DNA of 32,078 nt from the IMG/VR virus record IMGVR_UViG_3300028886_003642; one strand, 5' to 3'. Numbering within the stretch: the stretch's first letter is position 1; the number at the start of each line of letters is the position of its first letter. This DNA comes from a virus. Taxonomy: Duplodnaviria; Heunggongvirae; Uroviricota; Caudoviricetes. This document shows, piece by piece, positions 828 to 15,935 of this stretch. The translations under genes were made by a program, and so were the position numbers. The notes under the pieces are model-generated. The model had not been told where the DNA came from. It did not search any database and saw only the letters and a program-made list of their open reading frames with translations.

Positions 828-1222
828 TTTTCAGCATCCTCTTTCTGCAATCCTACTTTCATACTAGTTTGTACAAAATTATTGGGAAAATGTTCTTTTA
901 TATCAAATGCTTCATCATCTAAAATAACAAATGACTCTATATCATTATGATTATCTAGCCATTCTTTTATTTCTAATCCACGAATACCATGCTCACTACA
1001 ACATGTTTTATCATATATTGACATAGAAAAATCATTTAATCTTTTCTTTAATGTATCTAACAAGCTACAATTTCTCCAAGAAGAACTTACTACAATTTTT
1101 GCGTTAGTTCTTCTTACTATACATGCTAGTAATATTAAGTGCTTATCAGATTCAATTGTCCATGAAAATCTATCTTGTACTGAATTTAATACACCATCTA
1201 CATCAAGAAATATTATTTTCAT
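791..1222 (-). CDS. HAD-superfamily phosphatase, Swiss-army-knife RNA-repair-like (HAD_SAK) type
   Basis: IIFLDVDGVLNS (motif I), IVVSSSWR (motif II), FVILDD (motif IV). Confidence 0.85.
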   Translation of the reverse strand: MKIIFLDVDGVLNSVQDRFSWTIESDKHLILLACIVRRTNAKIVVSSSWRNCSLLDTLKKRLNDFSMSIYDKTCCSEHGIRGLEIKEWLDNHNDIESFVILDDEAFDIKEHFPNNFVQTSMKVGLQKEDAEKCIAILSNIKSK

Positions 1223-3059
1223 AATGTTTCTCCCATTTAGTTCTTCCAGATCTATATACTTTACATGCCTTTAATTTAAGCATCACATAATCTTCCTTGT
1301 TAGAAGCATTAACTGCAATAGCCTCATCAACTAAAGAAGCAGTTTTCTTATCCTTTTTAAGCTTCTTTAATTTAGTTTTTTCTCTACCAATAGCTTCACC
1401 ATTCAAATACCAATAATATCTAGGAGAAGTCTGAGAAACACAACTAAATCCCAAAGATTCATAAATACCTCCTAAAAAGTAATCATTATCAGAATAAGAA
1501 ACTAAATAATTTGGGCAATACTCCCGTTCAAAAGCCTTAAGCAATTTATTTGCTCCACCAATTATAGTATATCCATTCTTCACACAATATCTATGAAGTT
1601 CATATCTTCCCTCTATATGACTTTTATAAGCTACCCAGTCAAAAGACATAATTGACATAAGCTCATTATTATAGTATAATCCATAATTTATATGATTATA
1701 TTGCGTCTTTCCTTGTAAATGATACTTGTCCATAAATTCATCTGTAATAGCAGAATCTACTTTTTTAATAACACATTTACGAGCCACTATCTTAGTCTGA
1801 GGAATAAATAATGATCTTAAATATGACTTAATTTTATCTTGATTATATTTCCAGTCCACATCAAAAATTGAAATTAAATGTACTCCCTGCATTTTAGCAG
1901 TGAGAAATTTATCTTGATGGTAAGTCTTTTCTTTATCTTCATAAGGAGAACCCTTACTAGCATGATAAACTGATCCATTGTATTCTATACCAATACCATA
2001 ATTCTTATAATAAATATCTATCTCCTTGCCAAAAAGAATATCTGAAGTCTTTTCTGGAGTATCATCAATCAATGTTGCAATATATTTCTTTATTTCATTC
2101 TCTGCAATTGAACCAGATACAGCTGTATTATTACAACCACAACTATGAATTTTACCAGCTAAAACATCTGACTTATTTATTACCTTTTCCTTTTTACAAA
2201 TATCACAGAAAAAAACCCAGTGAGGATGCCCATGCTCATCTGTATGATCATATCTAACAGCAGTTAAATGATCATATACATTTCCAATAATACTTTTAAA
2301 TCCTGGATTATCTTCACCTGTTCTATGCCTCCTGCAACCACAAGATTTAGTATTACCATTAACAAGATTTTTACCAATCACTATAAATTCATCATTATTA
2401 CATCTAGTGCAAAAGCATTTCCAATATGTTCTTTCATTTTTCACATAAGCAAAATCAGTAACAATCAAATCTCCGAACTTCTGCCCAATAAGATTATCTT
2501 GCTTTAACTTTGACAGCTTCTCAGATCTACAATATTTACAGGTTCTATTAACTAATCGCTTATTAGACAGAGAATGTGAATCAAAAATATCATGTCTGCC
2601 ACACTCACAAACACAATCCCATACTGCACGATTATCAGCATTAGTATACAAATATTCCACAGCAGTTACATGTCCAAATACTTGACCAGTCAAATCCTTA
2701 TGTGCAGTAATACACTTACCACAATTCTTTACAGCACCACTAAACAAATCTACTTCTTCTACTACAAGCCTATTTTTAGCCCTACACAAACATTCACAAA
2801 GCCATCTACTCTCCCCAACTTCTGCAATAACAACAAGCTTATTAAATCTTTGACCAATTAAATTATGCTTAATATTAGGATCATAATCTGTACACCCACA
2901 ACTATAAATAGTCCCACTATTCACTTCATCTGTGGATAAAATACATCTAGTACGACTAGAACAGCTACACTCACAAACCCACAACGGTTTACCAGTTTTC
3001 TTTTTATCACTTTTAGCAACTACTTCAAACATATTAAATTTATAGCCAAGCAGATTCAT
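1203..3059 (-). CDS. Hef-like free-standing endonuclease: five Cys-rich repeats, PD-(D/E)XK/Vsr-like domain, GNAT-like C-terminal domain
   Basis: Five repeats of (N/D)LxGxxF...WxCxCxC...SCGC; EIDIY...IGIEYNGSVYH; FMDKYHLQG...YELHRYC...GGANKLLKAF...YSDN...IYESLGF. Confidence 0.75.
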   Translation of the reverse strand: MNLLGYKFNMFEVVAKSDKKKTGKPLWVCECSCSSRTRCILSTDEVNSGTIYSCGCTDYDPNIKHNLIGQRFNKLVVIAEVGESRWLCECLCRAKNRLVVEEVDLFSGAVKNCGKCITAHKDLTGQVFGHVTAVEYLYTNADNRAVWDCVCECGRHDIFDSHSLSNKRLVNRTCKYCRSEKLSKLKQDNLIGQKFGDLIVTDFAYVKNERTYWKCFCTRCNNDEFIVIGKNLVNGNTKSCGCRRHRTGEDNPGFKSIIGNVYDHLTAVRYDHTDEHGHPHWVFFCDICKKEKVINKSDVLAGKIHSCGCNNTAVSGSIAENEIKKYIATLIDDTPEKTSDILFGKEIDIYYKNYGIGIEYNGSVYHASKGSPYEDKEKTYHQDKFLTAKMQGVHLISIFDVDWKYNQDKIKSYLRSLFIPQTKIVARKCVIKKVDSAITDEFMDKYHLQGKTQYNHINYGLYYNNELMSIMSFDWVAYKSHIEGRYELHRYCVKNGYTIIGGANKLLKAFEREYCPNYLVSYSDNDYFLGGIYESLGFSCVSQTSPRYYWYLNGEAIGREKTKLKKLKKDKKTASLVDEAIAVNASNKEDYVMLKLKACKVYRSGRTKWEKHYENNIS

Positions 3060-3277: not shown

Positions 3278-3579
3278 CATTTTATTACCTTACAGGCTCT
3301 TTATCCTGTAATTCTAATACTTTATCATTGTATTAGTTTAGACTATATCTTCAACTCATATGAGTTGTTCCCTATTCGTGGGTATTTCTTCCTCTTGGGA
3401 TTACTTTACCTAGTCGTTACACTTCCTATATGTTACCACATAGTTTAGCTCGGTATTATCCTATAATTATTTGAAGGACTCTCTTCTTTATATACCACAA
3501 TAACTATTAAAATAGTTTGTCGGAACCGAATTAAAGGAAATATACGTATAACTCACGCTACACGCACCCAATTATGTTT
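3278..3579 (-). mobile_element. ORF-less group I intron in the major tail gene (302 nt)
   Basis: Exon ends in U (CAUCCU); core elements GUAACGACUAG and AAGAUAUAGUCU (P7 GACUA/UAGUC); P9 TTACAGGATAAAGAGCCTGTAA shared with terL intron 4; ends in G; P10 AUAAU pairs with exon AUUAU. Confidence 0.85.
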
Positions 3580-4710
3580 AGGATGATTTTCATAATCTGA
3601 CATGATATCTAGTTGAAGCGTAAATTCTCCGAAGTCGTCGCCGATAAGACCAGTCAAATCTCCATCTGGCCTAATATTACACTTCCATGCCTCAATCATA
3701 AGGGCATTGCCTTGGTTTGGATCACCGAGGAACAAAAGCTCGCCAGTTATCTTACCAGCAGCAGAACCACTGACTGTTACATAACTTGCATCTGGTATCG
3801 TACAGGAAATCATTACTGTATCTCCAGCCTTAATTGCACCATCTTTCTTGATCTTAATGAGTCCACCACGAATTGACTCATCTTCAAGTACAAAGTCTTT
3901 ACCTTCTTTAAATGTACTCATACCTGCTGTCACATTAAATGTCATTATACCACTAGGTACAGTAAACATATCAGCAGGAGTTAATGTAAATGTCATTGTT
4001 ACACCTGCAACAGTTAATGTAAGAGATGTAGAACCAGCAGTACCAGTCATAGTTACATAAGTACCAGAAGCAGTAGTTAAATCTAAGGCATTAGATGCTG
4101 CTTCAATTGTGTAACCGTCAAAATCACCCGCAGTTGGTGTACCTGAGTGTGTAATTCTAAATACAAATGTAGCGTCACTTGTACCAGTATAACCAGTACC
4201 ATTAAGTACTATCTGACCACCTGCGGCATCTGTCATAGTAAGTCCATCAGCACTTACATTAGTTGCTGGAGCAAATTTAGCTTCTGGAAGTACTGCACTT
4301 GCTGGTGCTACTGCAACACCAGTTACATTTACATATCTATTACCATCTGCGTCTTTTAGCTCAATAATTCCAGGAACAGAAGGAACTGTATAAGATTCAT
4401 TTACTAGTGTAGTACCTGTCTGAACATGTACACCTTCTGTACCATATAAACCTAGAGCTAGATTATACATATTATATTCATTTAATACTATAGATCCACT
4501 TGCTTTGGTCTGCGTAGTTACTGCTGCCATTAGTTCACGTTTCTTATTCATAGAACTATATTTTTCTACAGTAGTAACATCAGTAGTTATATTAAACTCT
4601 GTGCAGTTTCCTAAAAAGTGGAGCTGATTTTCATCATCTGATCTGCGGAAATATATTCCACCAGCACCGACCATTAAATCAGCGGCTTCTGAAAACGCCT
4701 GATTTGCCAA
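3580..4710 (-). CDS. major tail (tube) protein exon 1; about 404 aa after splicing
   Basis: Tail-tube-like motifs (FLGNCTEFNIT...; IRPDGDLTGLIGDDFGEFTLQLDIM), position after head-tail genes. TTG start at 4710 lies 8 nt after AAGGAG; the track's GTG at 4719 overlaps the SD. Confidence 0.8.
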
Positions 4711-4755
4711 GTCAATCACTCCTTCTTAATTTAATATTTATGCATAAAAATTAAA

Positions 4756-9081: not shown

Positions 9082-10593
9082 TTAAGTAGCTGTAGGCTGT
9101 ACTGCTGAAACTCCTTCAACATCTACTGGTGCTCCTTTATTTTCTAGCCCATCTAATTCATCAATAAGTTTTTGAGTAACACTAAAATCAAGATCATCGG
9201 TCATTGCACGAATAACTTTCTTCTTTACTTCATAGTTTAATCCTTCACTTATATTAAAACCAAATGTAGTTAAAGCATTTGCTAATGTTTCTGATACATC
9301 AACTACTCCATATTCTTTATTATAAGTTACAAAATAATTTGACATATCCTCATTCATATAAGAACCAAACATAAATGCTATAATTCTTTCTGTTGCCTGA
9401 AGATTCTCTGCTAAATCCATAATAGTACGGAAAAGCTGTAAATTATCCCACTTCTTAGCAAGCCCAGACACATTAGAAATATTTTGCTGATTTAAGAATG
9501 TTAAATTTGCTTGCCTAAATATCTCCTTTATGATTAATTCTATTTCCTTAACAATCATATCTGTTGGCTTATCACTAGGAGATATAAATTTAGGAGATTG
9601 CTGACCATCTCTAAATAATAATGTATCTGTTACACCTACTCTTATAGGATCATTTTCTGGATCTTCATATTCATCCTCATCACCTATTGGATAAAGAAGT
9701 ATAGAAAAAGCTTGTCCACGATTTATACAGTCAAGAGAACTTAACTGATTATATAAAGCAAAAGAACTTCTAGCAATACCATACAAATCAGATTGTGGAA
9801 TTAAATCATCTGTTGCATTTAATACTCCATATAAAGGTATTACTGGTATTCTTCCAATAGTATTTTCAAATACTTCTTCTTCATCCTTTACTTTTTTTCT
9901 ACATATTGTATCAGTCCATGTCCATGTTTCAGTGATAGAAGAAGTTTCTCCTTTATCATCTATTACTTCATTTTGAACTGTATATGTTATACTTATAAGC
10001 CTACCAAATTTATCCCTTGAATATTTAGTTACTTGACTAGGACTTACTAAATACAAATACGGATATATTCTTTCTTCGGCTATTTTCTTTTTTGTTAATA
10101 CTACATTTGGGTCAACTTTAGGTGCGTCTATTACAATGAATTCTACACCATGTAATTTAGCTCTTATTGCAGCCTTTTTCATAAATCTAGTAAGAGTTGT
10201 ATTATTGCCATCTACATTATTTATAAATAACTTAAATGTATCTGAAAAATTATCCCTTACTGGATCTGATTTAAATATTGGATTTACGTGCGAGTCAATT
10301 ATCGGCTTAATAAAATTTATATAATAAGCTAAATCCTGTCTATGTGCATATTTATCTGCTTTTTCTACTGGAAAGGGTACTAGGTATGTTCCATCCTCGA
10401 ATCCACCACTTCCACGATAAGCATCATCCAGTAATTTATATTTATTTAAATTACCTGCATTATATTTAGCTCCCATTAACAACTGCTGGGTCATCTCATT
10501 AAAAGATTTTTCCACTCTTTCATAATGCTCTATATCACCAGAAGCACCCAATACATTTCTCTTTATACCTATTTCTTTATTATGTACTGACAT
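9082..10593 (-). CDS. portal protein
   Basis: 503 aa directly after terL; YYINFIKPIIDSHV, IGRIPVIPLY, SGLAKKWD motifs typical of SPP1-like portals. Confidence 0.85.
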   Translation of the reverse strand: MSVHNKEIGIKRNVLGASGDIEHYERVEKSFNEMTQQLLMGAKYNAGNLNKYKLLDDAYRGSGGFEDGTYLVPFPVEKADKYAHRQDLAYYINFIKPIIDSHVNPIFKSDPVRDNFSDTFKLFINNVDGNNTTLTRFMKKAAIRAKLHGVEFIVIDAPKVDPNVVLTKKKIAEERIYPYLYLVSPSQVTKYSRDKFGRLISITYTVQNEVIDDKGETSSITETWTWTDTICRKKVKDEEEVFENTIGRIPVIPLYGVLNATDDLIPQSDLYGIARSSFALYNQLSSLDCINRGQAFSILLYPIGDEDEYEDPENDPIRVGVTDTLLFRDGQQSPKFISPSDKPTDMIVKEIELIIKEIFRQANLTFLNQQNISNVSGLAKKWDNLQLFRTIMDLAENLQATERIIAFMFGSYMNEDMSNYFVTYNKEYGVVDVSETLANALTTFGFNISEGLNYEVKKKVIRAMTDDLDFSVTQKLIDELDGLENKGAPVDVEGVSAVQPTAT

Positions 10594-10633
10594 TGATTAT
10601 TATCTCACCTCCCGTACATAATATTTATAAATA

Positions 10634-13600
10634 TTACCAACCAACATTACGCGATACATTTTCTACTTTATGTTTATCTTTAAGCCTCATGCATAAATAT
10701 CTAGAAGCGTCCATTACGTGATCTTCTGTTTTAAGTGGACGATCTTCACCACGCAACTGAGCTTTTGAATCCCATGAATATGTATGTACTTCTTTTATAA
10801 AAAATCTACATTCATTAGATACAAATAAAGTTCTAGCTCCTATAAAAGTAGCCATAGTCCTTATACCATCTATAACAGAATTATTTGCATTTTTAGCCTT
10901 CATATGAAATCTTCTTAATTGAAGTTTAAAACTAGCAGCTGCTGGGTCAATCATTATTTCAATATCACGATACCCTTTACCAGTTAAATACTTATTTTCT
11001 TCTATAAAAGCTCTCATATCTTCTGCAAATTCTAAATCTGTTTTTTGAACGTCATAATCATTTTCCCTTCTAGCTTCTTCTCTACCAGCAAAATAATATT
11101 CTTTCACAATATATATATTACCATCAGTATCTTTACCACCAAGTAAAAATACAGTAGCATTACCAGTACCATAGTCAACACCAATGCACCATTTAATAAT
11201 TTTATCATAAGGTATTTCATTAGGATTAACTATATTTTCTCTATCAGAAAACATATCATATATTAATCCGTCTGCAACTACCCATTTCTAGCTTTACCAT
11301 ACAGGCTCTTTATCCTGTAACTAAGATTTCTCTTAGAGTTGGACTATCTCTTAACCATATCATCTAAGACTTAGGTTGTGGATTTCGTGGACTTTCACCA
11401 TATATTTATAATACTTAGGTTACTTATCTAGTCTCTAAACCTTCAAGACATTTCTATACTTGATTGGTAATTGATTAGCATTTTACAGCTTTCCAATTTT
11501 AACCCACTTTATTTTCAATTAGCTTTCGCTAAAAGGACAGCAAATGTTTACCGTCTATAAATCTTTTCTTAAAAACACCAGAATACATTGTCTTATATCT
11601 ATTTTTTACTTCTTCTGACAATGTTAAATTATCGTCCATAGTAAAATGAACATACATACCATTTTTTTCTTTTAAGTGTTTTAATACATCTTGATAAAAC
11701 CAATGATGTGGTGAAGCTGGGTTACAGCAAACCATACACTTTGATCCATCCACAGATAAACGTGCTGTAGCTTGATTAAAAAAACTTTGTGGTATTAGTG
11801 CAACTTCCAGTTATGTTATCTCTTAGGCTTTTTATCCTAAGATTCTATATGTCACCATATAGCTCGGCATATATTTTCACCATATCTATGTCCATATAGA
11901 CTTAGGTGTTGGAGACTCGTGGAAACATTATATTCTACTAACGTAGGTTCAGTTTCTATGCTCTACAATACTGAATACACTTTAGATTATTCAGTTATCT
12001 AGGTATTATCTTAAAAAGACTTCCACCTATTTTCCCCAATAATAATACAATATATTTCTATACTGCACGACAAATTTTATCAATATATAGCGCACACAAA
12101 GTGATCCCTTGGATCAAGTCTGCTGATGATTCCAATTATGTTATCGTAAAGGCTTTTTATCCTCTACTTCTATATGTCACCATATAGCTCGGCTTAAATC
12201 TTCACCATATTTAATTAAAACTTAGGTGTCGGAGTCTCGTGGAAATATTATATTCTACATAAAAATATAGGTTCAATTTCTAAGCTCTACAATACTAAAT
12301 AATTTTTAATTTATTTAGTTATCTCGGAATTTTCTATATATTCTTCATAACCTCTATGAATGTCCTGAAAATGATCATATACTGCATACATGTCATAATT
12401 ACGCTTTTTCAATCTTGCACTAAGAGTATCTTGTTTTATATTCATAATATCTGACCAATCATGAATAGTCTTAGTCTCACCATTAAACTCAACAAATCTA
12501 ACACTACACTTAATTGGTGTTTCCAATATATCCTCAACAGACCATCCACGCTCATATCTAGAACATAAAGCTCTATAAACTAATCCAAGTTTATCAGCCC
12601 ATTGCTTAAGATTATGTGTTTCACCATTATAAGTTAAAACAACATTTGATCTCATATTATTTCGTTGCTCAAATATAGTTGCCCATCTACAATTTGATGG
12701 TTCGTAGTTACCATTCACATCTATACGGTCTATGGTTAAATCATCACTATATCCACTACTCATTGCCCAATAATAAAAATTAGTGAATCCCAAAATATCA
12801 TCTAACCACTCATCACAAACTGTTATACCACGACCACCATAATGCTTATAATCTTTATTATTAACATTATAGCATCTGTGCTTCATCCTATTCCAACAAC
12901 GATATATTCTTGTATTAGACATTCCAGTTAATGGTTCCATGCTATAATACCTCCAAATAAAAATTTATAAACATATTATAACACAAAACAAAAAAGAAGT
13001 CAAGACTTTTTCCGATTTACCCCGATTATAATACATATAGTTTCCTACATGCACGACAAATCAATATCTTTAGCACCAAAAAGCCAAAATAAATTTGTTA
13101 CACCATTTTTAGTTATTTCTAAATAATTATCTGCTCTATGATCTACACAATCATATCCCATACCTAATAACATTTGCTTTAACGTATTAACTACATTCCT
13201 ACGTAATGCGCCGCTTGATCTCATTATGTTATCCTATAGGCTTTTTATCCTATAGTTCTATATATTACTATATAGCTCGGAGTACATTTTCATCATATCT
13301 AACTAAAGACTTAGATGTTGAACACTCGTGGAGATATTATATTTATTCAATCTCTACTCTCTACACTACTAACTGACCTATTCGCAATTCAGTTAGTTAG
13401 CTCGATATTGTCCTATTTTTTAAACTACACCTACGATTATTTGCTTGTTCTTTATGTGTTGCCCAAGTACAGTTTTCTTTACAATAATTGCCATTAACAT
13501 CAATTCTTTCTATAGTCGTTTCATGTTCACCAAATTCTTCTACATGTTTTAAATAAGACTCATACATGTCTTCTTTAAATTCTTCAAAAGAATTCCAAAG

Positions 13601-14491
13601 ACATTTTATACCTCTACCACCATAATCAGCATACTTATTAGAAGTCTCACAATTACACCTATATTTAATACCATCCCATATCTTATAAAATCGTGTAAAG
13701 TACATGCCATGCTTCATATTTGAATAGGGCAATGCTACATCTTTATAACATCCGCAAGACTTAGTATCATTATTAACTAAATGATCGAGCCTAACACTAA
13801 CTTCATTTCCACACTCGCATAAGCATTTCCAATAAGTACCTCTATAAGGTACACTTCTGTCAATTTCAATTGCAGTCAACCTACCAAACTTTTGACCAGC
13901 AATATCTAAAATATCGTGCTTAATTTTCTTTGCTTTTTCACTAGCCAATTCGCGATTATAACAACCACAAGATTTAGTATGACCATTACGAAGATTTTGA
14001 CCAATTACTACAACTGTATTACCACAATCACATAAACACTTCCAATAAGAACCTTTACCCTTAACCTTATGATCAAGAGAAATAACAAGTAACCTACCAA
14101 ACTTTTTACCAATCATATCTATAGTCTTTTTTCCTGACATTTCAACTTACTCCCCCTAACTTTTTACTTTTATTAAAGCATAAAAAAGTCAAAATGTCAA
14201 ATAGGAATTTTATCGAATTTGCTCAATTTTCTAAATAATGTTTCCATTATTAGGGGCAAATCAATTACCCACCATTGCAGCATTCATTCCATTAAATGTA
14301 TCCATTACAAACAATACAAATGAAAGTGAACAGCAAATAGTTTTGCCACTTCTGACACTACCATCTGCAACCAATAAAAACTTATCACTTACTGGAGAAT
14401 TATCCTGCCAATATGTTAATACTTTCATTTGTTTTTTACTAAAAGGCTTAAACTTAAATCCAGTTAATTTTAATTTTTTCTGATTAGCCAT
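10634..14491 (-). CDS. terL: terminase large subunit, spliced from 5 exons (14267-14491, 13066-13221, 12079-12132, 11550-11807, 10634-11287); 448 aa
   Basis: Exons of 75+52+18+86+217 codons join in frame: Walker A ADGSVRSGKT, MVG|RSSGALRRNV, FGAKD|ESSADLIQG, Walker B LYID|EVAL, RFIDG|KWVVADG, nuclease IGVDYG...DPAAASF...DHVMDASRY. Confidence 0.9.
11288..11549 (-). mobile_element. terL group I intron 4, ORF-less (262 nt)
   Basis: P1: exon GACGGU pairs with GCUGUC (U-G at splice site); P7 GACUA/UAGUC; terminal G; P10 CAUUU pairs with exon AAAUG. Confidence 0.9.
11808..12078 (-). mobile_element. terL group I intron 3, ORF-less (271 nt), inserted inside Walker B
   Basis: Follows GAU; guide GUCG pairs with exon UGAU; P7 GCAUA/UAUGC; 3' end GAUAACAUAACUG. 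Confidence 0.88.
12311..12940 (-). CDS. intron-encoded HNH homing endonuclease
   Basis: IYRCWNRMKHRC...YGGRGITVCDEW...LTIDRIDVNGNYEPSNCRWAT...QRNN; GGAGG RBS. Confidence 0.9.
   Translation of the reverse strand: MEPLTGMSNTRIYRCWNRMKHRCYNVNNKDYKHYGGRGITVCDEWLDDILGFTNFYYWAMSSGYSDDLTIDRIDVNGNYEPSNCRWATIFEQRNNMRSNVVLTYNGETHNLKQWADKLGLVYRALCSRYERGWSVEDILETPIKCSVRFVEFNGETKTIHDWSDIMNIKQDTLSARLKKRNYDMYAVYDHFQDIHRGYEEYIENSEITK
12975..13003 (-). promoter_or_regulatory. promoter inside intron 2 driving the HNH gene
   Basis: TTGACT-17-TATAAT about 35 nt upstream of the ATG. Confidence 0.65.
13222..14266 (-). mobile_element. terL group I intron 1 (1045 nt) carrying an HNH gene
   Basis: P1: exon GGGU pairs with GCCC; P7 GAGUA/UACUC; P10 UGAUUU pairs with exon AGAUCA; 3' end GAUAACAUAAUG. 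Confidence 0.88.
13397..14140 (-). CDS. intron-encoded HNH homing endonuclease with two Cys-rich N-terminal repeats
   Basis: Two GxKFGRL...YWKCLCxCGN...HTKSCGC repeats, then YGGRGIKC...TTIERIDVNGNYCKENCTWATHKEQANN. Confidence 0.9.
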   Translation of the reverse strand: MSGKKTIDMIGKKFGRLLVISLDHKVKGKGSYWKCLCDCGNTVVVIGQNLRNGHTKSCGCYNRELASEKAKKIKHDILDIAGQKFGRLTAIEIDRSVPYRGTYWKCLCECGNEVSVRLDHLVNNDTKSCGCYKDVALPYSNMKHGMYFTRFYKIWDGIKYRCNCETSNKYADYGGRGIKCLWNSFEEFKEDMYESYLKHVEEFGEHETTIERIDVNGNYCKENCTWATHKEQANNRRCSLKNRTISS

Positions 14492-15173
14492 CTTTTAGAG
14501 CTTCTTCTAGCTCATCATCAACCCCTTCAACGGCATCATCATCCCAAACTTCATCTGTCTTACCTTGAATTGCTTTGATAATTGAATCAGAATTATCATC
14601 TTTTTCTTCTTTCTTCTCTCCCCAACCAAAGTATTGACGAAGTTTTTCCCACGCTTGCATTTTATCTGGAAGATTTATAGAAATACCATCTCTGCCTTGC
14701 TTTACTGAAACAATTAAAGATGCATCTACTTCTTCACTATCTACCAAATGCATTTTATTTACAAATTTAGTTATTGGTTCTCCTGTATCTGGATCTCTCA
14801 TTACTGACCCATCTTTATCTAATACTGGAACTTCTTCTTCACTAAATTTTAGATAATCACTAATATCTGCTCTGGCTGATTTTATTAAAAACTCAAGATA
14901 TTCATTAGGATCAATATCAAATACTCTCTGCTGAACTTTCTTCAACTTTTTTATTGCCGATTTTATCTTAGGCTTATTTCTAAGTCTATTGCCCATTACA
15001 GCACCCTTATATTTATCATACTTATAAACTTGCATTGCTGCTTGTGTAGCATTATAAGACTGTAAATATCTTAGGACAAATTCTTGCTCTTTATCTGTTA
15101 AATCAAGACCATCTAATAGATCCGACATAAAATCAACTGAGTCTTCTTTATCTATTTTAGTTTTCTTTGCCAT
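14484..15173 (-). CDS. terS: terminase small subunit
   Basis: LTDKEQEFVLRYLQSYNATQAA HTH, DKMQAWEKL motif; overlaps the terL start. Confidence 0.88.
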   Translation of the reverse strand: MAKKTKIDKEDSVDFMSDLLDGLDLTDKEQEFVLRYLQSYNATQAAMQVYKYDKYKGAVMGNRLRNKPKIKSAIKKLKKVQQRVFDIDPNEYLEFLIKSARADISDYLKFSEEEVPVLDKDGSVMRDPDTGEPITKFVNKMHLVDSEEVDASLIVSVKQGRDGISINLPDKMQAWEKLRQYFGWGEKKEEKDDNSDSIIKAIQGKTDEVWDDDAVEGVDDELEEALKDG

Positions 15174-15588: not shown

Positions 15589-15662
15589 TGGTAGCAGGTT
15601 CCGAACTCGAATCGGAATTTGAAGATCATGACTCTCCCGTACTACCTTTATACTAACCTGCG
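15589..15662 (-). tRNA. atypical tRNA with CAU anticodon (Met-like), encoded CCA
   Basis: 74-nt cloverleaf; C1:U72 mismatch, loop GUCAUGA, A53:U61 T-stem, UUCGAGU T-loop. Confidence 0.7.
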
Positions 15663-15671
15663 ATTATAACC

Positions 15672-15738
15672 GTAGCAAAGGAGGCTGAACTAGTATTGCT
15701 CCGCACATAAAAGTCGCAGAACCAGCCCCAGATGCTAC
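15672..15738 (-). ncRNA. 67-nt structured element between the two CAU tRNAs
   Basis: GUAGCA/UGCUAC outer stem and GGGGCUG/CAGCCUC inner stem; no ORF. Confidence 0.45.
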
Positions 15739-15777
15739 TATACAATAAACATACATTTCTGTATGATTTTGCTAATA

Positions 15778-15854
15778 TGGTGGATCGTATTGGATTTGAA
15801 CCAATGACCTGCTGATTATGAGTCAGATGCTGCTAACCACTGAGCTAACGATCC
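15778..15854 (-). tRNA. tRNA-CAU, probably Ile2 (lysidine type) rather than Met
   Basis: GGAUCGUUAGCUCAG...CUCAUAA...GGUUCAAAUCC...CGAUCCACCA; GGA acceptor start and CUCAUAA loop resemble Firmicutes tRNA-Ile2. Confidence 0.9.
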
Positions 15855-15860
15855 ATAATA

Positions 15861-15935
15861 TGGCCTCCCTAAGATGACTCGAACATCTGATATAGGATTA
15901 GAAATCCCATGTTATATCCACTTAACTATAGGGAG
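15861..15935 (-). tRNA. tRNA-Arg(UCU)
   Basis: CUCCCUA/UAGGGAG acceptor, UGGGA-UUUCUAA-UCCUA anticodon arm, GUUCGAGUC T-loop, CCA end. Confidence 0.92.

Follow-up and report, generated by a model that had tools for sequence, protein, structure and literature searches.

Group I introns in the gene for the large terminase subunit (terL) are a recurrent feature of phage genomes. An intron in terL of phage LL-H is credited to Mikkonen and Alatossava (1995), as cited in PMC4299906, two introns per terL occur in phages Moonbeam (PMC4299906) and Romulus/Remus, up to three are found in Bastillevirinae (PMC11878797), and jumbo Staphylococcus phages display a multi-intron terL that is unresolved (bioRxiv 10.1101/2020.12.14.422802). 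Here we analyze a stretch of 32,078 nucleotides (nt) from an uncultured rumen/gut phage of the Caudoviricetes (IMG/VR record IMGVR_UViG_3300028886_003642), referred to below as the window, in which terL is, according to well-supported evidence, cut into five exons by four group I introns of the self-splicing type. We consider it very likely that this terL is functional and harbors four mobile, phage IA-like group I introns, self-splicing of which would give the mRNA for a 448-residue TerL of the D6E/PBSX type. The initial annotation of this DNA had called four introns in one gene a high load, and relative to the one to three published per phage terL (PMC4299906; PMC11878797) this is indeed the case.

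The window shares its general features with Moonbeam, Romulus/Remus, the Bastillevirinae and the MarsHill-like phages, all of which have several introns in terL, often accompanied by endonuclease genes, as well as small internal exons and an intron content that varies between close relatives (PMC4299906; PMC11878797; bioRxiv 10.1101/2020.12.14.422802). In contrast to the window, those Herelleviridae and jumbo phages are large myoviruses or jumbo phages with two or three introns in published counts, whereas the window belongs to an uncultured phage with a D6E/PBSX-type TerL.

The gene occupies positions 14491-10634 on the minus strand, directly 3' of the small terminase gene terS, and its ATG overlaps the terS stop codon (ATGGCTAA). 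All four introns are in phase 0, between codons, with a T before each intron and a G at each intron end. The parts of the gene are given below, together with scores for R1, a covariance model that we built from the 3' core of the intron alignment.

14267..14491, minus strand: terL exon 1, 225 nt, residues 1-75, containing Walker A DGSVRSGKT
13222..14266, minus strand: intron 1, 1045 nt, group I (R1 154.8 bits on 13222-13369)
13066..13221, minus strand: terL exon 2, 156 nt, residues 76-127
12133..13065, minus strand: intron 2, 933 nt, group I (R1 165.9 bits on 12133-12295)
12079..12132, minus strand: terL exon 3, a 54-nt mini-exon, residues 128-145, the last of which is the Walker B Asp
11808..12078, minus strand: intron 3, 271 nt, group I, without an open reading frame (R1 169.8 bits)
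11550..11807, minus strand: terL exon 4, 258 nt, residues 146-231, the first of which is the catalytic Glu of Walker B (Pfam Terminase_3)
11288..11549, minus strand: intron 4, 262 nt, group I, without an open reading frame, of a separate lineage (R1 115.5 bits)
10634..11287, minus strand: terL exon 5, 654 nt including the stop, residues 232-448, RNase H-like nuclease domain (Pfam Terminase_6C)
14484..15173, minus strand: terS, small terminase (Pfam Terminase_2, E 8.9e-29)

Calling of open reading frames (ORFs) returns terL as fragments only, of 76 residues (with the Walker A loop), 59 residues, 74 residues (Terminase_3) and 206 residues (Terminase_6C), between which lie ORFs of 247 and 209 residues unrelated to terL. 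The division into five exons and four introns that the initial annotation had drawn from such fragments proved exact at all four junctions: its eight junction strings are present on the minus strand where it had placed them, and the 54-nt exon extends over 12132-12079. The exon ends were recovered independently by tblastn of the homologue P0002 on the window. The predicted join of exons 1 and 2 reads ATGGTGGGT-AGATCAAGC, and the join at site 4 reads ATAGACGGT-AAATGGGTA.

Removal of the introns leaves a joined coding sequence of 1347 nt with a single terminal stop, which translates into a continuous TerL of 448 residues, as had been foreseen. The spliced protein aligns with the intron-less P0002, also 448 residues long, over residues 1-447 with zero gaps and 66% identity, in agreement with the expected collinearity, and is near-gapless against nine other homologues. 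Ten intron-less homologues have 136 invariant residues in common, of which it keeps 130. The assignment as TerL likewise holds, through the Pfam matches to Terminase_3 and Terminase_6C and through P0002, which matches the crystal structure of phage D6E TerL (5OE8) at E 1.4e-137 with identical numbering through residue 209. Walker A (DGSVRSGKT), Walker B (LYID|E) and a C-terminal RNase H-like nuclease follow one another in the layout of the PBSX/D6E type. As had also been proposed, the Asp-Glu pair of Walker B is split, intron 3 lying between D145 and E146 of the motif LYIDE. Three of the four insertion sites have family-invariant residues on both sides (G75|K76, D127|E128 and D145|E146); at the fourth, G231|K232, only G231 and W233 are invariant.

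A sister phage offers a greater level of detail about the junctions by allowing for a comparison with a naturally uninterrupted sequence. The terL of this phage, L003 (IMG/VR 3300028048_000399), is 97.6% identical at the nucleotide level and has an intron at the intron 1 site only. The spliced coding sequence of the window aligns to it without a gap over nt 226-1347. L003 thus provides a natural allele that is continuous at sites 2, 3 and 4, where its joins are GCTAAAGAT-GAATCATCA, TATATTGAT-GAAGTTGCA and ATAGACGGC-AAATGGGTA. The two terL genes differ at 33 nucleotides, 31 of which are synonymous, leaving only two amino acid changes. Judged by this comparison, the terL exons are under purifying selection. 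No exon contains a frameshift or stop, and the neighboring terS, portal and capsid genes are intact.

The same arrangement recurs in other samples. An independent Logan assembly, L108 (SRR7971122), is 100% identical to the window over the whole of terL from exon 3 onwards and over the 3' part of intron 2 that precedes it. The same layout of genes of 59, 209, 68 and 206 residues, at identical spacing, is seen in a contig from SRR9008757, including the 59-residue ORF that takes its ATG from the 3' end of intron 1. These recurrences speak against the possibility that strains with fewer introns were merged into a four-intron chimera during metagenome assembly, a possibility raised by the co-existence of sister strains with one, two or three introns in similar samples and by a diverged patch of exon sequence around site 3. 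We regard such a chimera as extremely improbable, and the matching assemblies indicate that the four-intron arrangement is not an assembly artefact.

Within the first 15 nt of each intron lies a guide that pairs with the end of the preceding exon and, contiguously, with the start of the next one. The P1 pairings of introns 1-4 are GGGU/GCCC, GAU/GUC, UGAU/GUCG and GACGGU/GCUGUC, with a wobble at the last exon base each time, and the corresponding P10 pairings, of 3-5 base pairs (bp), are AGAU/AUUU, GAAU/AUUU, GAA/UUU and AAAUG/CAUUU. This direct pairing check bears out, for all four introns, the preceding U, the terminal G and the P1 and P10 helices named in the initial annotation. At site 4, guide and exon compensate for each other, as L004 and L092, contigs of related phages, have the exon sequence GAGGGU together with the guide GCUCUC, a C-to-G change being matched on the other strand.

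MAFFT alone misaligned the 5' halves of the two intron lineages, and the 5' helices were therefore checked by coordinates with a script. Despite sequence differences, P2, P3, P4 and P6 form in each of the seven introns checked, with P3 found as UUGGGG/CUCCAA, UCGGGG/CUCCGA, GUGGGU/AUCCAC, UUGAGC/GUUCAA and UCGAGG/CUUCGA, and P2 is capped by GAAA in all four terL introns of the window. The 3' core consists of P7, which has a bulged A, of P8, P9 and P9.1, and of one further helix located between P7 and the P3 3' strand. In the seed alignment of eight introns this core is 89.9% paired, compared with 30-39% when the partner is slid by 1-3 columns; 19 pairs are changed on both sides, and the observed covariation was reached by none of 500 shuffles. 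Among 18 distinct sequences, including isolates outside the seed, pairing amounts to 89.3% overall and to 100% in P7, with 28 pairs changed on both sides. Four pairs of P7 covary. The terL introns hence display a core with P3-P8 and P4-P6 domains and a P3/P7 pseudoknot, backed by strong covariation. For intron 3, the minimum-energy fold alone recovers P2, P3, P6, P8, P9 and P9.1 (z -4.1).

The extra helix of the 3' core is 5 bp long (GAAAC/GUUUC, GAAAU/AUUUC or GAGAU/AUCUC), encloses a small hairpin and contains three to four covarying pairs. Introns of subgroup IA, reportedly so defined by Michel and Westhof in 1990, carry additional helices (P7.1/P7.2 or P7.1/P7.1a) in the stretch from the 5' strand of P7 to the 3' strand of P3. 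On account of the extra helix, the window introns are placed in the phage-type IA class, at the level of IA as a whole rather than of IA1 or IA2. The group IA introns of T4 td and Twort orf142 belong to the same class of architecture and general mechanism, being similar in the P1/P10 guide, in the extra helix between P7 and the P3 3' strand, in an ORF looped out of the core and in insertion at conserved catalytic motifs. They differ in that sequence similarity to the window introns is not detectable and that the extra element of the window introns is a single helix with a small hairpin, resembling P7.1/P7.1a.

Introns 1, 2 and 3 share 80-85% identity in their 3' cores, with 85% between introns 3 and 2 and 80% between introns 3 and 1. 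The core of intron 4 is only 55-61% identical to those of introns 1-3, and intron 4 and a further related intron in a tail gene of the window, described below, are 55-64% identical to these and to each other. Judging from these identities, the terL introns of the window fall into two lineages, introns 1-3 and intron 4.

Introns 1 and 2 contain the two ORFs unrelated to terL, which are listed with a nearby promoter-like site.

13397..14140, minus strand: intron 1 ORF, 247 residues, endonuclease-like (PHROG phrog_374 'HNH endonuclease', E 1.7e-76)
12311..12940, minus strand: intron 2 ORF, 209 residues, endonuclease-like (PHROG phrog_3377, labelled 'HNH endonuclease', E 3.8e-69)
12975..13003, minus strand: promoter-like site TTGACT-17-TATAAT upstream of the intron 2 ORF, 11/12 positions plus TG, a consensus match only

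The number of promoter-like sites in the region overall is not above the shuffled expectation. Both ORFs are located between the two strands of P4, with their 3' ends running into the 3' strand of P4 and into P6, and they share a common core of 95 residues at 39% identity. They belong to a family of at least 7976 database proteins, mostly viral, that is without a representative in Pfam, NCBIfam or PDB and is characterized by the motif YGGRGI...IDRID.NGNY.P.NCRW. The segment IDRID..NGNY...NCRW presumably has Arg where HNH_3 has His. The confident AF2 model of the intron 2 ORF (pLDDT 92.7) finds its best fold match in the HNH enzyme PacI, at a marginal Z of 5.9 and a root-mean-square deviation of 5.9 over 91 residues, and also marginally matches small DNA-binding modules. 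In view of the PHROG labels and the marginal fold match, 'homing endonuclease' is a reasonable reading of these genes, and we infer that both may encode active homing endonucleases.

Several observations weigh against the interpretation of terL as a functional gene with four self-splicing introns. P1 is short in introns 2 and 3, with 3-4 exon bp, and intron 4 on its own folds no better than its shuffles (z -1.6). The intron ORFs have no sequence match in Pfam, NCBIfam or PDB, and Foldseek and VIA-align gave no convincing fold match for the intron 2 ORF model. The IMG/VR record is labelled an incomplete 'provirus', 39% complete, so that viability of the phage is no more than presumed. Rfam RF00028 (Intron_gpI), a group I model check that had been suggested earlier, gives no match in the window at the gathering threshold and none on 10500-14600 even at E<=10. 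The last two points would also fit a terL that is dead in a decaying prophage, with the insertions being remnants of introns that do not splice, or other mobile DNA. We consider this very improbable, as the exons are free of frameshifts and stops, the differences from the sister phage are nearly all synonymous, the core helices are intact in all four introns, and the same arrangement is found 100% identical in other samples, next to intact terS, portal and capsid genes.

The silence of Rfam can be best explained by considering introns that are already known. R1 detects each of the five related introns of the window, four in terL and one in the tail gene. It also gives full-length matches to three further terL introns, those of Staphylococcus phage IMEP5 (133 bits), Lactobacillus phage JCL1032 (98.6 bits) and Streptococcus phage 2972 (82 bits), as well as to an intron in the portal gene of Clostridioides phage CD1801 (84.8 bits). 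RF00028 matches the 2972 intron at 53.3 bits, above its cut-off of 50, and misses those of JCL1032 and IMEP5, indicating that the negative result in the window reflects the sensitivity of the model rather than absence of introns. Since Rfam is silent in the window, we base the class assignment on a dedicated structure analysis together with the Rfam match of a relative. By these matches, the window introns are of the same family as the terL introns of 2972, JCL1032 and IMEP5. Annotation gives the JCL1032 terL as a two-piece join, and those of 2972 and IMEP5 as split ORFs. LL-H/JCL1032, 2972 and IMEP5 thus resemble the window in both host gene and intron family (R1 82-133 bits). However, JCL1032, 2972 and IMEP5 carry one intron per terL in the stretches examined, as opposed to four of two lineages in the window, and their TerL proteins are ~40% identical to that of the window.

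Other candidate elements were considered and rejected. Group II introns were set aside, with no reverse transcriptase in the ORF list and no group II match in the Rfam scans, domain V not being separately checked, and IStrons were discarded for lack of a transposase. Inteins do not account for the four terL sites, where the insertions are out of frame, have stops in all frames and contain ribozyme cores. Rfam rows for small nucleolar RNA and TLS in the window, all at E>1, are attributed to chance.

Expression of the gene would start with transcription into a 3.9-kb pre-mRNA, in which each intron RNA would fold into the P3-P9/P4-P6 ribozyme core. P1 would then form between the guide and the last 3-6 exon bases, with a U.G pair where cleavage takes place, and P10 between the guide and the opening 3-5 bases of the exon that follows. 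Two guanosine-dependent transesterifications per intron would remove it and join its exons, and four such reactions would produce the 1347-nt terL message. We infer that splicing occurs, autocatalytically and in a guanosine-dependent manner. All four reactions would be needed for synthesis of TerL, making DNA packaging dependent on all of them. That this dependence may act as a timing or GTP-sensing gate, as the initial annotation suggested, is already in print as a hypothesis for Bacillus phages, under the term 'molecular on-switch' (PMC11878797).

Splicing might nevertheless not proceed as four clean, independent events. Introns 2 and 3 use the same guide (UUUGUC) in the same exon context, GAU|...|GAA, and lie 54 nt apart, with cores that are 85% identical, which makes skipping of exon 3 mechanistically possible; the resulting join of exons 2 and 4 would read GCTAAAGAT-GAAGTTGCA. 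Exon skipping between neighboring introns has been seen in SIOphi terL and in Twort orf142, and several Bastillevirinae introns are spliced only in vivo (PMC11878797), so that genuine group I introns may skip this exon or need a protein cofactor. On the other hand, the sequence bears no sign of exon skipping, the skipped product would be without the Walker B strand and hence inactive, and purifying selection on the exons implies that enough correct TerL must be made. Altogether, we find skipping or dependence on a cofactor unlikely. An extension of this idea, that the phage produces active TerL alongside an in-frame, ATPase-dead isoform shorter by 18 residues, depending on the order and fidelity with which the paralogous introns 2 and 3 are spliced, appears to us quite doubtful; if true, the intron load would not be neutral but would tune packaging or delay it. 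Four self-splicing introns and a functional TerL remain the preferred reading.

The terL genes of closely related phages differ in intron content.

Window terL: four introns, at sites 75/76, 127/128, 145/146 and 231/232
L003 terL: one intron, at site 75/76
L089 terL: two introns, at 127/128 with the same 209-residue ORF, and at 231/232
L004 terL: three introns, td-like in the Walker A Ser codon, ORF-less of 273 nt at 127/128, and at 231/232
L092 and L093 terL: an intein near the Walker A loop and the 231/232 intron
L094 terL: an intein near the Walker A loop and a 420-nt 127/128 intron that keeps the promoter region of the ORF

Many TerL homologues are without any interruption. In this one TerL clade, insertions are found at no fewer than five sites, in the Walker A loop and at 75/76, 127/128, 145/146 (Walker B) and 231/232. 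Database ORFs of 206-209 residues and of ~300 residues show sites 231/232 and 145/146 to be occupied in many further phages. A metagenome scan with exon 5 returned solely the sister contig already known. A scan of viral contigs with a TerL profile gave 80 genes, mostly uninterrupted and more distant; because its ranking by contiguous match puts split genes at a disadvantage, we did not treat the result as a census.

The inteins at the Walker A loop are of the LAGLIDADG type and were found at L092:3642-5447, L093:3931-5736 and L094:4129-5604, and in P0003 and P0005-P0013; relatives of this TerL that contain such an intein include forms of 800 residues. The small td-like group I intron of L004 (1392-1603) interrupts the Walker A Ser codon in phase 1, so the same motif is targeted by both types of element. 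TerL inteins thus parallel the window introns as selfish elements aimed at the same conserved motifs, but they are in frame and spliced at the protein level, whereas the window insertions have stops in all frames and ribozyme cores.

The intron at site 127/128 exists in three states: 933 nt with the 209-residue ORF (window 12133-13065), 420 nt with the promoter region retained and the ORF gone (L094:5584-6003), and 273 nt without an ORF (L004:1852-2124). By their lengths and contents, these look like a natural decay series of an endonuclease gene. The endonuclease-like genes of introns 1 and 2 probably drive homing of these introns into intron-less alleles at the DNA level, while for introns 3 and 4 the probable route of spread is recombination with diverged donor alleles, or use of the endonuclease of a neighbor.

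Exon divergence between the window and L003 is uneven. Outside a patch at coding-sequence nt 396-516, centred on site 3, it amounts to 0.6-2.7%; within the patch it reaches 14.8% for exon 3 and 9.4% for the 85 nt that follow, almost all changes being synonymous. Such a patch is the footprint that would be expected of co-conversion from a diverged donor. At site 4, the last base of exon 4 (window 11550) is T, giving GGT, in all intron-4-bearing alleles seen, while the intron-less L003 has a C at this base (L003:7967), giving the synonymous GGC. This difference is consistent with selection for a U at the wobble pair of the 5' splice site, or alternatively with co-conversion.

Upstream of terS, the window carries three tRNA genes (15592-15935). 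In L089 (1596-2831), L092 (1559-2647) and L093 (1848-2936), a TnpB / IS605 OrfB (Cas12f-like) gene lies just upstream of terS.

Related introns in this phage are not confined to terL.

3278..3562 (5' boundary not fixed), minus strand: fifth related group I intron (R1 83.2 bits on 3278-3425)

This intron is situated close to the 3' end of the gene for the major tail protein (3553-4719, phrog_807). It shares the L9.1 motif GGATAAAGAGCC; its 3' end is clear, after ...AAAATG, and the 27-codon open frame beyond would serve as a short last exon. Exactly five copies of the conserved P9.1 loop motif GGATAAARAGCC are present in G000, the 40.5-kb record that comprises the window and 8.4 kb more. All are on the terL strand, one for each terL intron and one for the tail-gene intron. 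The sister phage G001 also has the tail-gene intron; an intron-less allele of it was not found. At 1203-3059, on the minus strand, lies a free-standing endonuclease-like gene of 618 residues (phrog_559 / phrog_3339, 'homing endonuclease') with its own promoter of the TTGACA...TATACT type. Its position directly downstream of the tail-gene intron and mini-exon makes it a possible partner of the ORF-less intron in 'collaborative homing'.

The four-intron terL is an ordinary but unusually clean case of a known phenomenon and introduces no new principle. Its value lies in the TerL clade as a whole, which shows all stages of the intron life cycle: endonuclease-bearing (window, L089), with a decaying ORF (L094), ORF-less (L004, intron 3 of the window) and empty (L003). 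This set of alleles provides ready-made substrates for the study of homing, co-conversion and exon skipping. It also exposes a widespread lineage of phage introns that the single group I model of Rfam misses, with the consequence that automated annotation will keep presenting such terL genes as fragments.

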